Shown one piece after another: positions 3,237-62,249 of a DNA stretch of 64,000 nucleotides. Under the pieces are notes generated by a model, which worked only from the letters and a program-made list of their open reading frames with translations, was not told where the DNA came from and searched no databases. The stretch spans positions 909-64,908 of the forward strand of contig CAZURV010000009.1 in the NCBI GenBank assembly GCA_964623515.1, read 5' to 3'. Each line of letters opens with the position of its first letter. Within the stretch, counting starts at the first letter, position 1. The translations under genes were made by a program, and so were the position numbers. This stretch comes from an uncultured Eubacteriales bacterium. GTDB taxonomy: Bacteria; Bacillota; Clostridia; Oscillospirales; Acutalibacteraceae.

Positions 3237-3420
3237 TATAGATACTCCGCGTTATTTTTATCGGTTGTTAAATTGTACCATAATAACAGAACGAATAAAA
3301 GACGGAAAATTCAACAATATTTTACATTCAATTTATATAACTTGCCATAAACTGTGATGTATTTAACAATTTATAAACAGTATTTTCAACAAAGAAGGGT
3401 TGACCTATAACCTGTTCGCC

Positions 3421-3572
3421 GATGTCCCCGCCTCTTAGGTAGCGGGGACATTTCGGAATTTCAGTGGGGTGACAATCTCCCACTGAAACCCTGAGGAGCG
3501 AACGCTCCCTGCGCAGGTTGCAGTCGTTCGCAAGCCCCATTTCAAGCGAGCTTGATGGAGCACTGCTCCGAT
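3421..3572 (+). ncRNA. Unassigned structured RNA element, copy A (paralog of 53091-53240 and 54978-55140)
   Basis: Hairpins GTCCCCGC/GCGGGGAC (3424-3431/3442-3449), CAGTGGG/CCCACTG (3463-3469/3479-3485) and GCGAACG/CGTTCGC (3498-3504/3525-3531), followed by AAGCCCC. Block order matches copies B and C. It lies in a gene-free gap, and the overlapping track ORFs look spurious. Confidence 0.55.
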
Positions 3573-3583
3573 TAAAAAAAATA

Positions 3584-3612
3584 TTGACAAACATTCCGTT
3601 TTGTAATAAAAT
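3584..3612 (+). promoter_or_regulatory. Sigma-A type promoter of the infC-rpmI-rplT operon
   Basis: TTGACA (3584-3589), 17-nt spacer, TAAAAT (3607-3612). Confidence 0.65.
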
Positions 3613-3619
3613 ACATAAG

Positions 3620-3745
3620 ACAATAAAGAAAAGCATCATGCTTTCACCTGCCGGTTACGCTTGCAGCGTCAATACGTATTCAGCGGATTTGTAATCCGCC
3701 GTTTGTGTTGGCATCGTTGCGTCTTGGCTACGGTGCTTTTGTTTT
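3620..3745 (+). promoter_or_regulatory. L20-leader-like transcription attenuator upstream of infC
   Basis: Leader of about 150 nt with hairpins AAAGC/GCTTT and GCGGATT/AATCCGC, plus a terminator-like hairpin GCATCGT/ACGGTGC (3711-3736) followed by TTTTGTTTT. Position upstream of infC matches the Firmicute L20 autoregulatory leader. Confidence 0.5.
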
Positions 3746-25342: not shown

Positions 25343-25837
25343 ATGAAAACAACAGCAGAGAAAGTTGCATATTTTAAAGGGCTTGTAGACGCAACGGTTT
25401 TTGCATCTGAGGATAAAAAGAAATTATTTTCTGTTCTTGCAGATGTTTTGAAATCCATTTCAGAGGATATTGATGTGAATGCGGAAAACATTGACAATGT
25501 TGACGCGCATCTTCTTGAGGTAGATGAAGATCTCGGATATATTGAAGAACTGGTTTACGGGGAAGAGGATCCTCACGGCGATTATGACGAATGCAGTGAA
25601 GAAGACGGGTTCTATGACGATTATGAAGAGAGTGAAGATGAAGACGAAGATGAAGACGAAGACGAGTTCGAAACGCTTGATGGGGAAGAGAATGAGGTCG
25701 AAGATGAAATGTATGAGGTTGAATGCCCTGCTTGTCATAAGGTGATTTATCTTCAAGAGAGCGTGATTCTGGACGGTGCGGTAGACTGTCCCAACTGTGG
25801 TGAACCTTTGGAGTTTGATATTGAATTTGAAGAATAA
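25343..25837 (+). CDS. Acidic protein with a C-terminal CxxC..CxxC zinc ribbon (resembles the efp-linked CD1247-type family)
   Basis: ATG at 25343 after GGAGG. Contains a long D/E tract (SEDEDEDEDEDE) and a C-terminus CPACHKVIYL..CPNCGEPLEF. Confidence 0.65.
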   Translation: MKTTAEKVAYFKGLVDATVFASEDKKKLFSVLADVLKSISEDIDVNAENIDNVDAHLLEVDEDLGYIEELVYGEEDPHGDYDECSEEDGFYDDYEESEDEDEDEDEDEFETLDGEENEVEDEMYEVECPACHKVIYLQESVILDGAVDCPNCGEPLEFDIEFEE

Positions 25838-25845
25838 TTGATGAT

Positions 25846-25878
25846 GAATACCCTGTGCTTTTTAAGCACAGGGTATTC
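25846..25878 (+). terminator. Strong stem-loop after the efp operon
   Basis: Perfect 15-bp inverted repeat GAATACCCTGTGCTT/AAGCACAGGGTATTC with loop TTT. There is no clear T-run. Confidence 0.55.
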
Positions 25879-26041
25879 AATATATAAAGAATTATAAGGA
25901 TAATCCAATCAAAGGAACGAATAAGTTTTACGGCGGATATGATAGAGCGGTCCGACCGGGAATATCATCCCTCCACCACAAGTAGCGCATGGATTTGTCG
26001 AATTGCACAACGAATACACCGCTTTTTCTATATTCAGCAGA

Positions 26042-53055: not shown

Positions 53056-53084
53056 TTGACAAGAGATTTTGCTTACGTTATAAT
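53056..53084 (+). promoter_or_regulatory. Consensus sigma-A promoter driving RNA element copy B and the AIM24-like gene
   Basis: TTGACA (53056-53061), 17-nt spacer, TATAAT (53079-53084). Confidence 0.75.
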
Positions 53085-53090
53085 TTAAAC

Positions 53091-53240
53091 ATAAATTCGA
53101 CAAAGACGGTTTCCCGTCTCTAAGGCGGGTGGATTGCTTTTTCAAAATCAGCGGCGGGAAACAATTCCTTTTGATGCTTAAACAGTTGCGTTGTTCTTTG
53201 CCGCGTTATTTAACGCGGCAAAGCCCTTATTAGAAAATTT
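53091..53240 (+). ncRNA. Unassigned structured RNA element, copy B (5' leader of the AIM24-like gene; candidate cis-regulator)
   Basis: Hairpin 1 is CCGTC/GGCGG around TCTAA, with an alternative upstream partner GACGG. Hairpin 2 is ATCAG..GG/CC..TTGAT. Hairpin 3 is a perfect 12-bp stem CTTTGCCGCGTT/AACGCGGCAAAG followed by CCCTTATT. The element ends at the GGAGG preceding ATG 53258. Confidence 0.6.
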
Positions 53241-54087: not shown

Positions 54088-54864
54088 ATGAATATGGAAA
54101 TCGCGAATAAATTATATGAGTTAAGGCGTGAAAACGTGTTATCGCAGGAGGCGTTGGCGGAAAAACTGAATATATCCAGGCAGTCTGTTTCAAAATGGGA
54201 AAGGGGAGAATCAAGTCCCGATACGGATAATCTGATTGCGCTTGCAAAACTTTATGATATTTCTTTGGATGAACTGCTGCTGAACAATTCTCGCGGAGCG
54301 GAAAAAAACGAATCCGAACCGAATGCATGCACAAAAGATGCCGATTTCGTTACAGAAGAACATTCTTGTTCGGAGAAAAACAGGGAAGAACGCAAAGGTC
54401 ATAATTTTATAGATATAGATGATGGACAAAACACTGTTAAAATCGGAACGCAAGGCATTTGTGTGAATGAAAAAGAGGGAAATACGGTTAAAATAGATAA
54501 AAACGGCGTATATGTTAATGGCGGTGCGGCTGATGATCATATTTTCACCGAGGGCAAAAAGAAAAATAAGTTTATGGTTTTTCCTTATCCTGTGTTAGTT
54601 GTAATTTTATTTTTAGTGCTCGGGTGTACGCTTAAAGTATGGAGCACGGCATGGCTGTTGTTTTTGACTATACCTCTTTACTATACTTTGATTGAAGCGA
54701 TAGAAAGAAAAAATGCAAATATTTTTTGCTATCCGGTTTTTACGACTCTTATCTATCTTTGTATGGGATTTTTCCTGCATTTATGGGCATGGGGATGGAT
54801 CGTGTTTTTAACCATTCCGATATATTATGCATTCTGTCCGCACAAAGAGGAACACAAAGAATAG
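54088..54864 (+). CDS. Membrane-tethered XRE-family HTH protein with a duplicated 2-TM module
   Basis: N-terminal HTH_3 (LSQEALAEKLNISRQSVSKWERGESSP) and a soluble linker. The C-terminus holds two homologous TM hairpins (FPYPVLVV..LLFLTIPLYY and FCYPVFTT..IVFLTIPIYY). Confidence 0.8.
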   Translation: MNMEIANKLYELRRENVLSQEALAEKLNISRQSVSKWERGESSPDTDNLIALAKLYDISLDELLLNNSRGAEKNESEPNACTKDADFVTEEHSCSEKNREERKGHNFIDIDDGQNTVKIGTQGICVNEKEGNTVKIDKNGVYVNGGAADDHIFTEGKKKNKFMVFPYPVLVVILFLVLGCTLKVWSTAWLLFLTIPLYYTLIEAIERKNANIFCYPVFTTLIYLCMGFFLHLWAWGWIVFLTIPIYYAFCPHKEEHKE

Positions 54865-54977
54865 ATTTTCAATTTACGCATTAAGGATTAAACCGAAAAT
54901 GAGGCAAAACGAAAGGAACTGAAATTTCCAAAGAGTAATAAAGAAAAATCGTAAAAAAGAAATGTAACTTATGTAAA

Positions 54978-55104
54978 GATGTCCCCGCCTCTAAGGCGGC
55001 GGGCGCCGTTTTCGAAATCAGAGGGATATAACTCCATCTGATTTCTCAGACAGCTGATGTTCTTTGCCGCGTTGAATAGCGGAAAGCCCATTATTGAAAC
55101 AACA
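54978..55104 (+). ncRNA. Unassigned structured RNA element, copy C
   Basis: The 5' end GATGTCCCCGCCTCT is identical to copy A. Hairpins are CCGCC/GGCGG around TCTAA, AAATCAGA/TCTGATTT with inner GGG/CTC, and CTTTGCCGC/GCGGAAAG, followed by CCCATTATT. Confidence 0.6.
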
Positions 55105-55140
55105 GAACCGATTTGCAGTTGCAGGTCGGTTCGTTAATTT
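55105..55140 (+). terminator. Terminator-like hairpin immediately 3' of RNA element copy C
   Basis: GAACCGA/TCGGTTC (55105-55111/55126-55132) followed by GTTAATTTT. Confidence 0.55.
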
Positions 55141-55168
55141 TGACAAAATTATAAAAAGAATATATTAT
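55140..55168 (+). promoter_or_regulatory. Sigma-A type promoter of the macro/vWA gene pair
   Basis: TTGACA (55140-55145), 17-nt spacer, TATTAT (55163-55168). Confidence 0.55.
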
Positions 55169-55197: not shown

Positions 55198-56232
55198 ATG
55201 CCGTTACAGATAATCAGAAATGATATAACAAAGATGGAATGTGATGCGATTGTCAACGCTGCCAATTCAACACTTTTAGGCGGCGGGGGAGTCGACGGTG
55301 CGATACATAGGGCAGCAGGCAGGGGCTTACTGCGGGAATGCAGGAGGCTTGGCGGTTGTAAAGTCGGTCAAGCCAAGATAACAAAAGGATATAAATTACC
55401 TTGTAAATATATTATACATACTGTCGGTCCGATATGGAAGGGCGGTAACAATCATGAAAAAGAATTACTGGTATCTTGCTATAATCATTCACTTGCTCTT
55501 GCTAAAGAGAATAACTGTGCGTCTGTTGCATTTCCTTTAATTTCATCGGGAGTTTATGGATATCCTATGGATAAAGCAATGAAAGCCGCAGTTGATACTA
55601 TCGGCTCATTTCTGTTGCATAATGATATGCTTGTGTATATCGTTGTTTATAACAAAAACGCCGTAAATATAGGCAATAAGCTGTTTACAGACATTGCAGA
55701 GTACATAGATGATAACTATGCAGCTGAGCATACGGACATTAACTATGAGCAAATGTGTCAGGCACAGTGCAGTATGACTTATTCCGAAAGAAAATACGTT
55801 GAAGTTCAGGATACTGTTGGTGAAGCGTTGTCTGTACAGCCGTTTGAAAGTGAAAGTAAACTCGGTCTGGAGGAGATACTTGATAATATGATTGACGAAA
55901 GCTTTTCTCAAATGCTGTTGCGCAAGATTGATGAAAACGGAATGACTGACAGTGAATGCTATAAAAAAGCGAATATCGATCGAAAGCTGTTTTCGAAAAT
56001 ACGCAGTAATCCACAATACAAACCAAGCAAAATAACGGCAATAGCCTTTGCGATTGCGCTTGAGCTTTCACTTGATGAAACGAAAAATATGCTGATGAAA
56101 GCGGGATTTGCATTATCGCACAGCAACAAGTTTGATATTATTATTGAATATTTTATCAGTAAGGGTAACTATAATATCTTTGAAATCAACGAGGCGCTTT
56201 TTGCCTTTGACCAATGCTTGCTTGGTGCGTAA
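55198..56232 (+). CDS. Macro domain (ADP-ribose binding/hydrolase) protein fused to a C-terminal XRE-like HTH domain
   Basis: ATG at 55198 after GTGAGG. Macro motifs are [26 protein letters not shown] and [12 protein letters not shown]. The C-terminal ~110 aa has an HTH-like pattern ([41 protein letters not shown]). Confidence 0.85.
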
Positions 56233-62027: not shown

Positions 62028-62111
62028 TCAAAACACCTGATAGAATTCAAAAGAGAGCTTGTTCCGTTATTCAATGCGGAAAAGGGACGTGTCAGAGGTC
62101 TGAACAATCAG

Positions 62112-62249
62112 AACGGCTGTTTTTGTTTGCGTTATATTTTATTTTCAGCGTTGGGTTAAGCCAAATAGGGAGAAAAAACGAATAATGATTGTTAGTTGTA
62201 ATATTTCGTTAAAAATGTTTGTCAAGAGGATGCTTGACTTCGCATTTTG
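62112..62249. repeat. Noncoding repeat R2 (paralog of 57674-57826), containing the likely ogg promoter on the minus strand
   Basis: Contains the identical 20-mer AAGCCAAATAGGGAGAAAAA (62158-62177). The minus strand reads TTGACA (62220-62225), 16-nt spacer, TATTAC (62198-62203), about 170 nt upstream of the ogg ATG. Confidence 0.7.

Follow-up and report, generated by a model that had tools for sequence, protein, structure and literature searches.

A short, structured repeat of Clostridia is probably a gene-less mobile DNA element

We analysed a stretch of 64,000 nucleotides (hereafter the window; positions 909 to 64,908 of contig CAZURV010000009.1, assembly GCA_964623515.1) from an uncultured Eubacteriales bacterium of the family Acutalibacteraceae, in which a repeat lies between a gene for a membrane protein with a helix-turn-helix (HTH) domain and a macro-domain gene. 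It is likely that positions 54968-55098 are one copy, called copy C, of a gene-less and non-autonomous mobile DNA element and not a dedicated regulator of the neighbouring genes; that the repeat is a mobile insertion is close to certain. An earlier annotation of the same letters (the first-pass annotation) had placed an RNA motif coupled to a terminator at 54978-55140 and offered it as a small RNA, as a 3′ untranslated region (UTR) or as a riboswitch gating the downstream macro and vWA genes. The repeat exists, but relative to the proposal both borders of the unit move to the left, the start by 10 nt and the end by 42 nt. The copy and its host surroundings are composed as follows.

54968-55098, + strand: mobile unit of copy C, from CTTATGTAAAGATG to CCCATTATTGAA, defined by a covariance-model match and by its exact absence from the orthologous spacers of two relatives (L108 and L110)
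54963-54967, + strand: left flank TGTAA, a mutated TATAA target pentanucleotide resembling a transposon-adjacent motif (TAM), outside the mobile unit; recognised by family counts and by ATATAA exactly at the junction in both empty sites
54983-55003, + strand: hairpin H1, left subterminal, CCCCGCC-UCUAA-GGCGGCGGG, 15 nt inside the left end; stem and loop CUCUWAGG conserved across the family
55014-55045, + strand: hairpin H2, long and internal, GAAAUCAGA-GGG...CUCC-AUCUGAUUUC; from the fold and family covariation
55046-55057, + strand: degenerate hairpin H3, UCAG-ACAG-CUGA; read from the sequence, with pairs that covary in the family
55062-55086, + strand: hairpin H4, right subterminal, CUUUGCCGC-GUUGAAUA-GCGGAAAG; from the fold and family pairing
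55094-55098, + strand: TTGAA, the final five bases of copy C, resembling a transposon-encoded motif (TEM); nearly invariant in the family, its junction with the flank confirmed by the empty sites
55105-55142, + strand: intrinsic-terminator-like 12-bp hairpin (55105-55132) followed by GTTAATTTTG; host terminator of the HTH-membrane gene, outside the element
55140-55168, + strand: sigma-70-type promoter TTGACA-17-TATTAT of the macro-domain gene; host sequence, outside the element

Empty sites in close relatives

Comparison loci and contigs are labelled here with L-numbers (L001 and so on). Two short contigs of close relatives were reached through homologues of the proteins encoded on either side: L108, whose macro protein is 89% identical to that of the window, and L110, whose AIM24 protein is 92% identical and which carries the AIM24, HTH-membrane and macro genes in the window's order. 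The spacer between the HTH-membrane and macro genes measures 198 nt in these relatives against 333 nt in the window. Their empty site reads ...CAGAAATATAA|ACAATAGAACCGATTTGCAGATGCAGGTCGGTTC..TTGACA..., or ...CAGAAATATAA|ACAATAGAACCGATTTGCAGATGCAGGTCGGTTCTTACAATTTTGACA... in a longer reading, with the junction ATATAA|ACAATAGAACCG, while the filled site of the window reads ...TGTAA[131 nt]ACAACAGAACCGATTTGCAG... and its right flank runs on as ACAACAGAACCGATTTGCAGTTGCAGGTCGGTTCGTTAATTTTGACA. The empty TATAA|ACAAT... is matched by the filled TGTAA[element]ACAAC..., with no target duplication. A second copy of the window, copy B in front of the AIM24 gene, is likewise missing from L110, where TTGAAA-17-TATAAT is followed by TCAAATATAA|AAGTTTTTCGGAGG and then by the AIM24 start codon; the junction, TATAATTCAAATATAA|AAGTTTTTCGGAGG, has TATAA and again no target duplication, and the window carries 141 extra bases (53095-53235) after CATAA at this site.

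It follows from the empty sites that the mobile unit of copy C is 54968-55098, immediately 3′ of TATAA and with nothing duplicated. The relatives either never had the insertions or precisely excised them, and either way the element is mobile DNA. A search for further empty sites among the loci selected by the element gave none, because all of these loci had been chosen for carrying it, and no exact matches to the window's own AIM24 and macro proteins are on record.

The first-pass annotation was right that a hairpin with GTTAATTTTG and a TTGACA-17-TATTAT promoter come after copy C. Both are kept in the element-free spacers of L108 and L110, the terminator with only few substitutions, and are therefore host sequence that predates the element or survives without it; they cannot be counted as parts of the motif, and the terminator-coupled layout is a coincidence of the landing site. 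For the same reason the idea of an aptamer that gates the macro and vWA genes through this terminator had to be given up, and the common signal suggested for the AIM24, macro and vWA genes fares no better, since L110 keeps the AIM24-HTH-macro order with neither copy B nor copy C. The link between these genes is thus an accident of landing sites, and a false lead to a riboswitch or small RNA is removed. What survives by position is the 3′ UTR option: copy C lies between the HTH-membrane stop codon, which ends at 54864, and the pre-existing terminator of that gene (the macro gene starts with ATG at 55198), and is probably carried as an extra 3′ UTR of the HTH mRNA.

Borders, dispersal and fold of the family

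To see the family outside the window, 185,579 species genomes were scanned with a pattern of internal blocks only (CCCGYCTCTWAGG, TCAG and AAGCCC), the borders being no part of it, and at least 106 loci matched. Eight of these (in Acidobacteriaceae/Sulfotelmatobacter, Ignavibacteria and Schaalia) have neither head nor tail of the element and were set aside as fortuitous; L003, L004, L017, L020, L092 and L101 are such false positives, in which a conserved Acidobacteriaceae/Sulfotelmatobacter stretch happened to match the pattern. The remaining matches among those listed fall into about 20 assemblies of Clostridia, which carry the labels Ruminococcus, Ruminiclostridium, Oscillospiraceae or Eubacteriales, plus, as isolates, Acetivibrio sp. 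MSJd-27 and Guopingia tenuis NSJ-63; three metagenome-assembled genomes (MAGs) account for at least 39, at least 19 and at least 11 of the listed loci. Some MAGs are unusually dense in copies, with roughly one every 5-15 kb. Searching 741 kb of these Clostridia loci with a covariance model made from four copies with a hand-set structure yielded 169 matches (about 135 sense copies), and the model matched copy C at 54963-55098 (53.3 bits, E 1.1e-13). The family length is 131-143 nt, copy C having 131 nt.

The borders are sharp. In 96 aligned copies the pentanucleotide of the 5′ flank counts T86 A95 T96 A95 A96 and the next base is C; upstream of TATAA the base composition is random, with no conserved -35 box. 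At the 3′ end TTGAA is found in 93-96 of the 96 copies, conservation ends after ...GGCAAGCCCCTTATTGAA, and the sequence beyond is random, so that the homologous motifs have no conserved terminator. The ends read TATAA|CTTAGGCAAG...TTATTGAA, the left flank (TATAA) always differs from the right end (TTGAA), and terminal inverted repeats are missing: the first 25 nt agree with the reverse complement of the last 25 nt at only 9 positions. The reading of the TATAAC border as a -10 box of the element's own was rejected, because a conserved -35 box is missing, the border is missing in tandem copies, and TATAA is present in empty sites.

Ninety of 97 copies are intergenic, in unrelated sites, and in 8 copies the TAA stop codon of the upstream gene is the TAA of the TATAA motif. 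The orientation against genes is mixed, with 47 copies in the same and 33 in the opposite direction as the downstream gene, and 48 and 29 for the upstream gene. The association with AIM24, macro or vWA genes that the first-pass annotation proposed to look for in other genomes therefore does not appear in any consistent form. Concerning replication, 60 of 89 copies have the element on the G-rich strand (binomial p = 0.0013, with copies of the same contig taken as independent), as do 31 of 39 where |skew| > 0.05; the + strand of the window, which carries copies A, B and C, has a GC skew of +0.11. In Firmicutes the G-rich strand is the leading-strand sequence and hence the lagging-strand template.

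Rearranged copies obey the same border rule, as all of them join right after an NNNAA pentanucleotide. Tandem junctions of the form TTGAA|CTTAGG occur in L076 and L068, which is only suggestive as a sign of a circular single-stranded intermediate. In L008, L036 and L042 (all on the minus strand) TATAA is directly followed by a solitary 24-nt terminal unit, TGACGGGGCAAGCCCCTTATTGAA. This unit is duplicated behind full copies in L005, L054, L070, L071 and L085, and one copy in L071 stops at GTTGAA inside the H4 loop, without the 24-nt unit. This unit behaves like a mini-element of the size of a repetitive extragenic palindrome (REP), or like the trace of an element partly excised at the internal GTTGAA.

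On one strand the element is ordered as head CTTAGGCAAGATG, H1, H2, H3, H4 and tail CCCCUUAUUGAA. In the family, H1 is CCCCCGCC-UCUAA-GGCGGCGGG, H2 is long and variable and has an AUACAAU-like loop, H3 is short and its loop sequence is free, and H4 is CUUGCC-ACGUUGAAUGACG-GGGCAAG. On the model-guided alignment 94.8% of the cells are paired, compared with 78% after shuffling and 42-58% with slid partners, and changes on both sides are seen for 17 of 18 pairs of H2 and all 7 pairs of H3; the figures come from an alignment that was itself fitted to the model, and many of these changes were passed down within subfamilies. Given copies aligned by MAFFT only, RNAalifold had recovered H1 alone because indels shift the stems, and the hand-structured covariance model took its place. 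Many pairs are G-U, which makes the fold specific to one strand. The head segment GGCAAG can replace the 3′ strand of H4 as partner of its 5′ strand, and both pairings are kept (96.4% and 94.3% of cells); where a subfamily has an additional A (L001, L013 and L044), all three segments contain it, as GGCAAAG, CUUUGCC and GGCAAAG. In copy C the 5′ strand of H4 is also able to pair with the head GUAAAG (54973-54978). Copies without H2 recur in L032, so H2 is dispensable, and copies within a genome accumulate stem-breaking mutations. In L074 (4335-4477) and L086 (6421-6563) the tip of H2 is inverted, with GGGGATTGAAC(T/C)CC in place of GGGGTTCAATCCCC and the stem kept.

No match was obtained when the consensus was compared by blastn with PLSDB plasmids and INPHARED phages, and a pattern scan of IMG/VR viral contigs gave 0 matches. 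Rfam 15 had no match in the whole window at the gathering threshold and only noise around copy C at E up to 10 (e.g. a partial antisense SAH hit at 16 bits), and Rfam did not match the element in five related loci either. In a literature search, neither signature strings of the element nor TATAA as an IS605 target were found. On this evidence the element, which is very abundant and previously uncatalogued, is a new addition to a known class of mobile DNA. For gut and rumen Clostridia it is now defined by exact borders, a target motif and a fold ready for a covariance model, and masking it would prevent repeated false calls of structured RNA in these genomes.

Likely mode of movement and competing explanations

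The insertion polymorphism with exact borders, the target motif, the missing target duplication and terminal inverted repeats, the dispersal, the conserved fold and the strand bias are direct observations; an enzyme, a single-stranded intermediate and any effect on neighbouring genes are what we infer. Insertion sequences (IS) of the IS200/IS605 family lack inverted repeats, leave the target unduplicated, enter 3′ of a specific tetra- or pentanucleotide and have subterminal hairpins that are bound by a Y1 HUH transposase (PMC7290912; PMC6006769), and IS608 and ISDra2 target the lagging-strand template (PMC6006769). Meers et al. described the TAM, a similar TEM at the right border, the erroneous use of TEM look-alikes as boundaries, and gene-less derivatives like palindrome-associated transposable elements (PATEs) (PMC10055086). 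The pair TATAA and TTGAA, the products ending at internal TTGAA and the joints of the empty sites match this picture point for point. We consider it somewhat favoured by the evidence that our element works like a PATE of this particular enzyme family. Movement would then follow the "peel-and-paste" single-strand route of IS200/IS605: a tyrosine HUH transposase supplied in trans would bind the subterminal hairpins, the top strand would be cut just after the flanking TATAA and just after the terminal TTGAA, and the excised single strand would re-enter 3′ of another TATAA, preferably on the lagging-strand template and with no target duplication. By this route copy C would have entered behind the HTH-membrane stop codon, ahead of that gene's terminator, and copy B would have entered the short AIM24 5′ UTR.

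With the PATE-like elements of Geobacillus stearothermophilus (ISGst), the CdiIStron PATE of C. difficile and the PATEs of Haloquadratum, our element has in common that it contains no genes and no inverted repeats, inserts without duplication 3′ of a fixed pentanucleotide, ends with five bases that resemble this pentanucleotide, carries candidate subterminal hairpins on one strand, uses alternative boundaries at look-alike motifs, is biased to one replication strand, and would leave target and flank restored on excision. It differs in that its end hairpins are mutually dissimilar, its interior is a conserved and covarying fold of several helices, and its copy density is unusually high.

Several points weigh against the IS200/IS605 assignment. 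The left hairpin, H1 (about 22 nt), starts about 15 nt from the left end, the right one, H4 (26 nt) or GGGG-CAAG-CCCC, is 8-12 nt from the right end, and the two are unlike each other, whereas the end hairpins of IS608 reportedly resemble each other. Guide tetranucleotides, by which bases 5′ of the hairpins would be linked with TATAA and TTGAA, were sought by hand, and no consistent rule came out. In about 860 kb of locus DNA, neither a regular expression for HUH/Y motifs nor tblastn with IS200 and IS608 TnpA queries turned up a transposase partner, and a metagenome scan for the left end together with the N-terminal motif of TnpA (Y-H-x-V...K-Y-R) was empty. H2 and H3 covary strongly, though transposition should not need them; such covariation hints at a further role, perhaps as RNA. 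Copies of the same contig count as independent in the orientation statistics, as stated. All partial matches of the covariance model were cut by locus ends, and an open reading frame beside a solitary left end in L063, considered as a transposase, is not transposase-like.

That the element is mobile by another machine, such as a domesticated RAYT-like enzyme, an IS91-type rolling-circle enzyme or some novel enzyme, we regard as unlikely. It would agree with the dissimilar end hairpins, with the 24-nt terminal hairpin unit, which alone is REP-like, and with the outcome that no cognate IS having the element's ends was found. REP/REPIN sequences and their RAYT (TnpA-REP) enzymes also offer a real likeness, for they are abundant intergenic hairpin repeats and REPs are thought to be moved in trans by a Y1 HUH enzyme. 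Our element is, however, about 140 nt long with four hairpins, strictly directional and free of inverted doublets, no RAYT gene was seen nearby, and the TAM/TEM pair with the lagging-strand bias fits IS200/IS605 best. An IS91-type enzyme is disfavoured in addition, because IS91 reportedly targets GTTC or CTTG and we know of no miniature IS91 derivatives. Moreover, REPs are single hairpins of 21-65 nt and often form inverted pairs (PMC6006769).

A mobile element that also makes a functional RNA is distinctly unlikely in our judgement. Such an RNA would be a guide scaffold like an omega RNA or a trans-acting small RNA ending at TTGAA, with the flank serving as guide for a TnpB/IscB-type nuclease encoded elsewhere. 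The heavy covariation of H2 and H3 and the strand-specific pairing with its many G-U pairs speak for it, and the right end with TATAA matches the published layout of omega RNA and TAM in IS605 (PMC10055086), where a structured scaffold likewise ends at the right border and the target is defined by a TAM. Unlike TnpB/IscB systems, the examined loci have no linked nuclease gene and the element, known here from DNA alone, has no Rfam similarity to IS605-orfB, HEARO or any other family; in addition, no conserved promoter lies upstream, copies without H2 still recur and stem-breaking mutations accumulate in copies of the same genome. We give a similarly small chance to the proposal that the covarying four-helix fold, with its alternative pairing of head and H4, is a functional RNA riding on a miniature transposon, or else that the element is moved by a HUH enzyme of a new kind, able to recognise hairpins that differ from each other. 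As an omega-RNA-like scaffold, each of the many copies in a genome would offer its own flank as guide to a nuclease provided in trans. Should a partner enzyme or a role as RNA come to light, the element may become a compact model for single-strand transposition.

The riboswitch or attenuator of the first-pass annotation, in which the four blocks form an aptamer and the hairpin at 55105-55140 is the platform that gates read-through into the macro and vWA genes, with copy B doing the same for AIM24, is by now very improbable. The compact and covarying multi-helix fold, the place of copy B in a 5′ UTR behind a perfect promoter and the mutually exclusive, switch-like pairings of head and H4 are what one would expect of a leader RNA. 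Against this, riboswitches have a fixed gene association and orientation, while this element is multicopy, has transposon borders, is absent at orthologous loci (copy B from L110, and copy C from L108 and L110, which keep terminator and promoter), and lies beside unrelated genes in mixed orientation with at least 39 matching loci in a single MAG; furthermore, a strong promoter stands between the hairpin and the macro gene, and Rfam 15 has no match. Finally, a classical miniature inverted-repeat transposable element moved by cut-and-paste with a DDE transposase (e.g. IS630/Tc1-like with a TA duplication) would explain why the element is short, abundant, intergenic and found at AT-rich targets, and Correia, RUP, BOX and ERIC resemble it as small repeats that occur in many intergenic copies, end up inside UTRs and can change how neighbouring genes are expressed, but those have terminal inverted repeats and target duplications and our element has neither (9/25 bases; TATAA|ACAA becomes TGTAA[element]ACAA; TATAA on the left is always unlike TTGAA on the right), so this explanation can practically be dismissed.

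Other copies in the window and minor observations

Three copies (A, B and C), as first annotated, are a real and strongly structured repeat by blastn, covariance model and folding: all three fold far better than shuffled sequence (z = -4.6, -3.0 and, for copy C, -4.8). The start of copy C as first annotated is indeed identical to that of copy A, as GATGTCCCCGCCTCT is found exactly twice in the window, at 3421 and 54978. The covariance model matches copy A at 3406-3544 (30.3 bits) and copy B at 53090-53234 (26 bits); when the copy C region is compared with the window by blastn, copy B (53113-53236) and the start of copy A are recovered, along with part of a fourth copy, D, on the minus strand (62112-62062). 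The other copies are as follows.

53095-53235, + strand: copy B, with the flank CATAA at 53090-53094; from the model match, reading of the sequence and the empty site in L110
3411-3576, + strand: copy A, with the flank TATAA at 3406-3410, its right end uncertain by about 2 nt; from the model match and reading of the sequence
62046-62131, - strand: copy D, a 5′-deleted remnant of the B/C subfamily; from blastn, a weak model match (E 0.42) and reading of the sequence

Copy B sits a few bases past the start predicted from a perfect promoter (53056-53084) and probably lengthens the AIM24 5′ UTR by about 140 nt. Insertions of this element probably rewrite UTRs, with about 140 nt on the AIM24 leader and 131 nt on the HTH 3′ UTR, and they provide natural markers for strain comparison; effects of copies B and C on the expression of their neighbours are possible from their positions. 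Single changes in the TAM abolish excision in characterised elements (PMC10055086), and by analogy the flank mutations in copy C (TGTAA) and copy B (CATAA) may have immobilised these copies.

Copies B, C and D have a common subfamily signature, ..TGTTCTTTGCCGCGTT.., which gave 0 matches in a JGI metagenome scan. On the minus strand copy D reads TATAA (62136-62132)|CGCAAAC...TCTGATTGTTCAGACCTCTGACACGTCCCTTTTCCGCATTGAATAACGGAACAAGCTCTCTTTTGAA| and ends with TTGAA, so it is without H1 and keeps a 3′ half of the B/C type and both border motifs. Copy A belongs to a longer subfamily with another 3′ end, ...GCAAGCCCC-hairpin-GGAGC..CTCCGATT(T)AAA (also given as ...CTCCGATTTAAA), which is found in unrelated contexts in L010, L058, L083 and L093. 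In the window (3411-3576) and in L033 (3999-4140, minus strand), which come from distant genomes (DnaI 35% identical), a copy lies just upstream of and divergent from a dnaB/dnaI-like operon; the two copies are of different subfamilies, and this may be a coincidence or a favoured landing site.

In L058 (280-700) an antisense copy of the A type lies between a T-box-like leader with its terminator and the start codon of pheS, so that the pheS mRNA would carry the complement of the element. This leader was recognised by eye from the motifs AGAGAGTA, GGTGAAAG and AGGTGGTA, followed by a hairpin and TTTTTTATT, and Rfam made no T-box call there at the gathering threshold. Next to copy A in the window (3585-3705), the genes infC-(rpmI)-rplT have a strong promoter (TTGACA-17-TAAAAT) with a leader of about 90 nt in front of them, at a place where a leader of the L20 type would be expected; Rfam L20_leader had no match to this region at the gathering threshold. 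At 25833-25911 the window has a perfect long hairpin, TGAATACCCTGTGCTT-TTTAA-AAGCACAGGGTATTCA, with a weak and spurious model match on both strands (E 0.02-0.05), which is probably a bidirectional terminator unrelated to the element. In L107 (3001-4650) a macro-domain homologue of 549 aa (752 bits to the macro protein of the window) adjoins genes for a relaxase and a Y-family polymerase (IMS), which indicates that the macro protein family also travels on mobile DNA.

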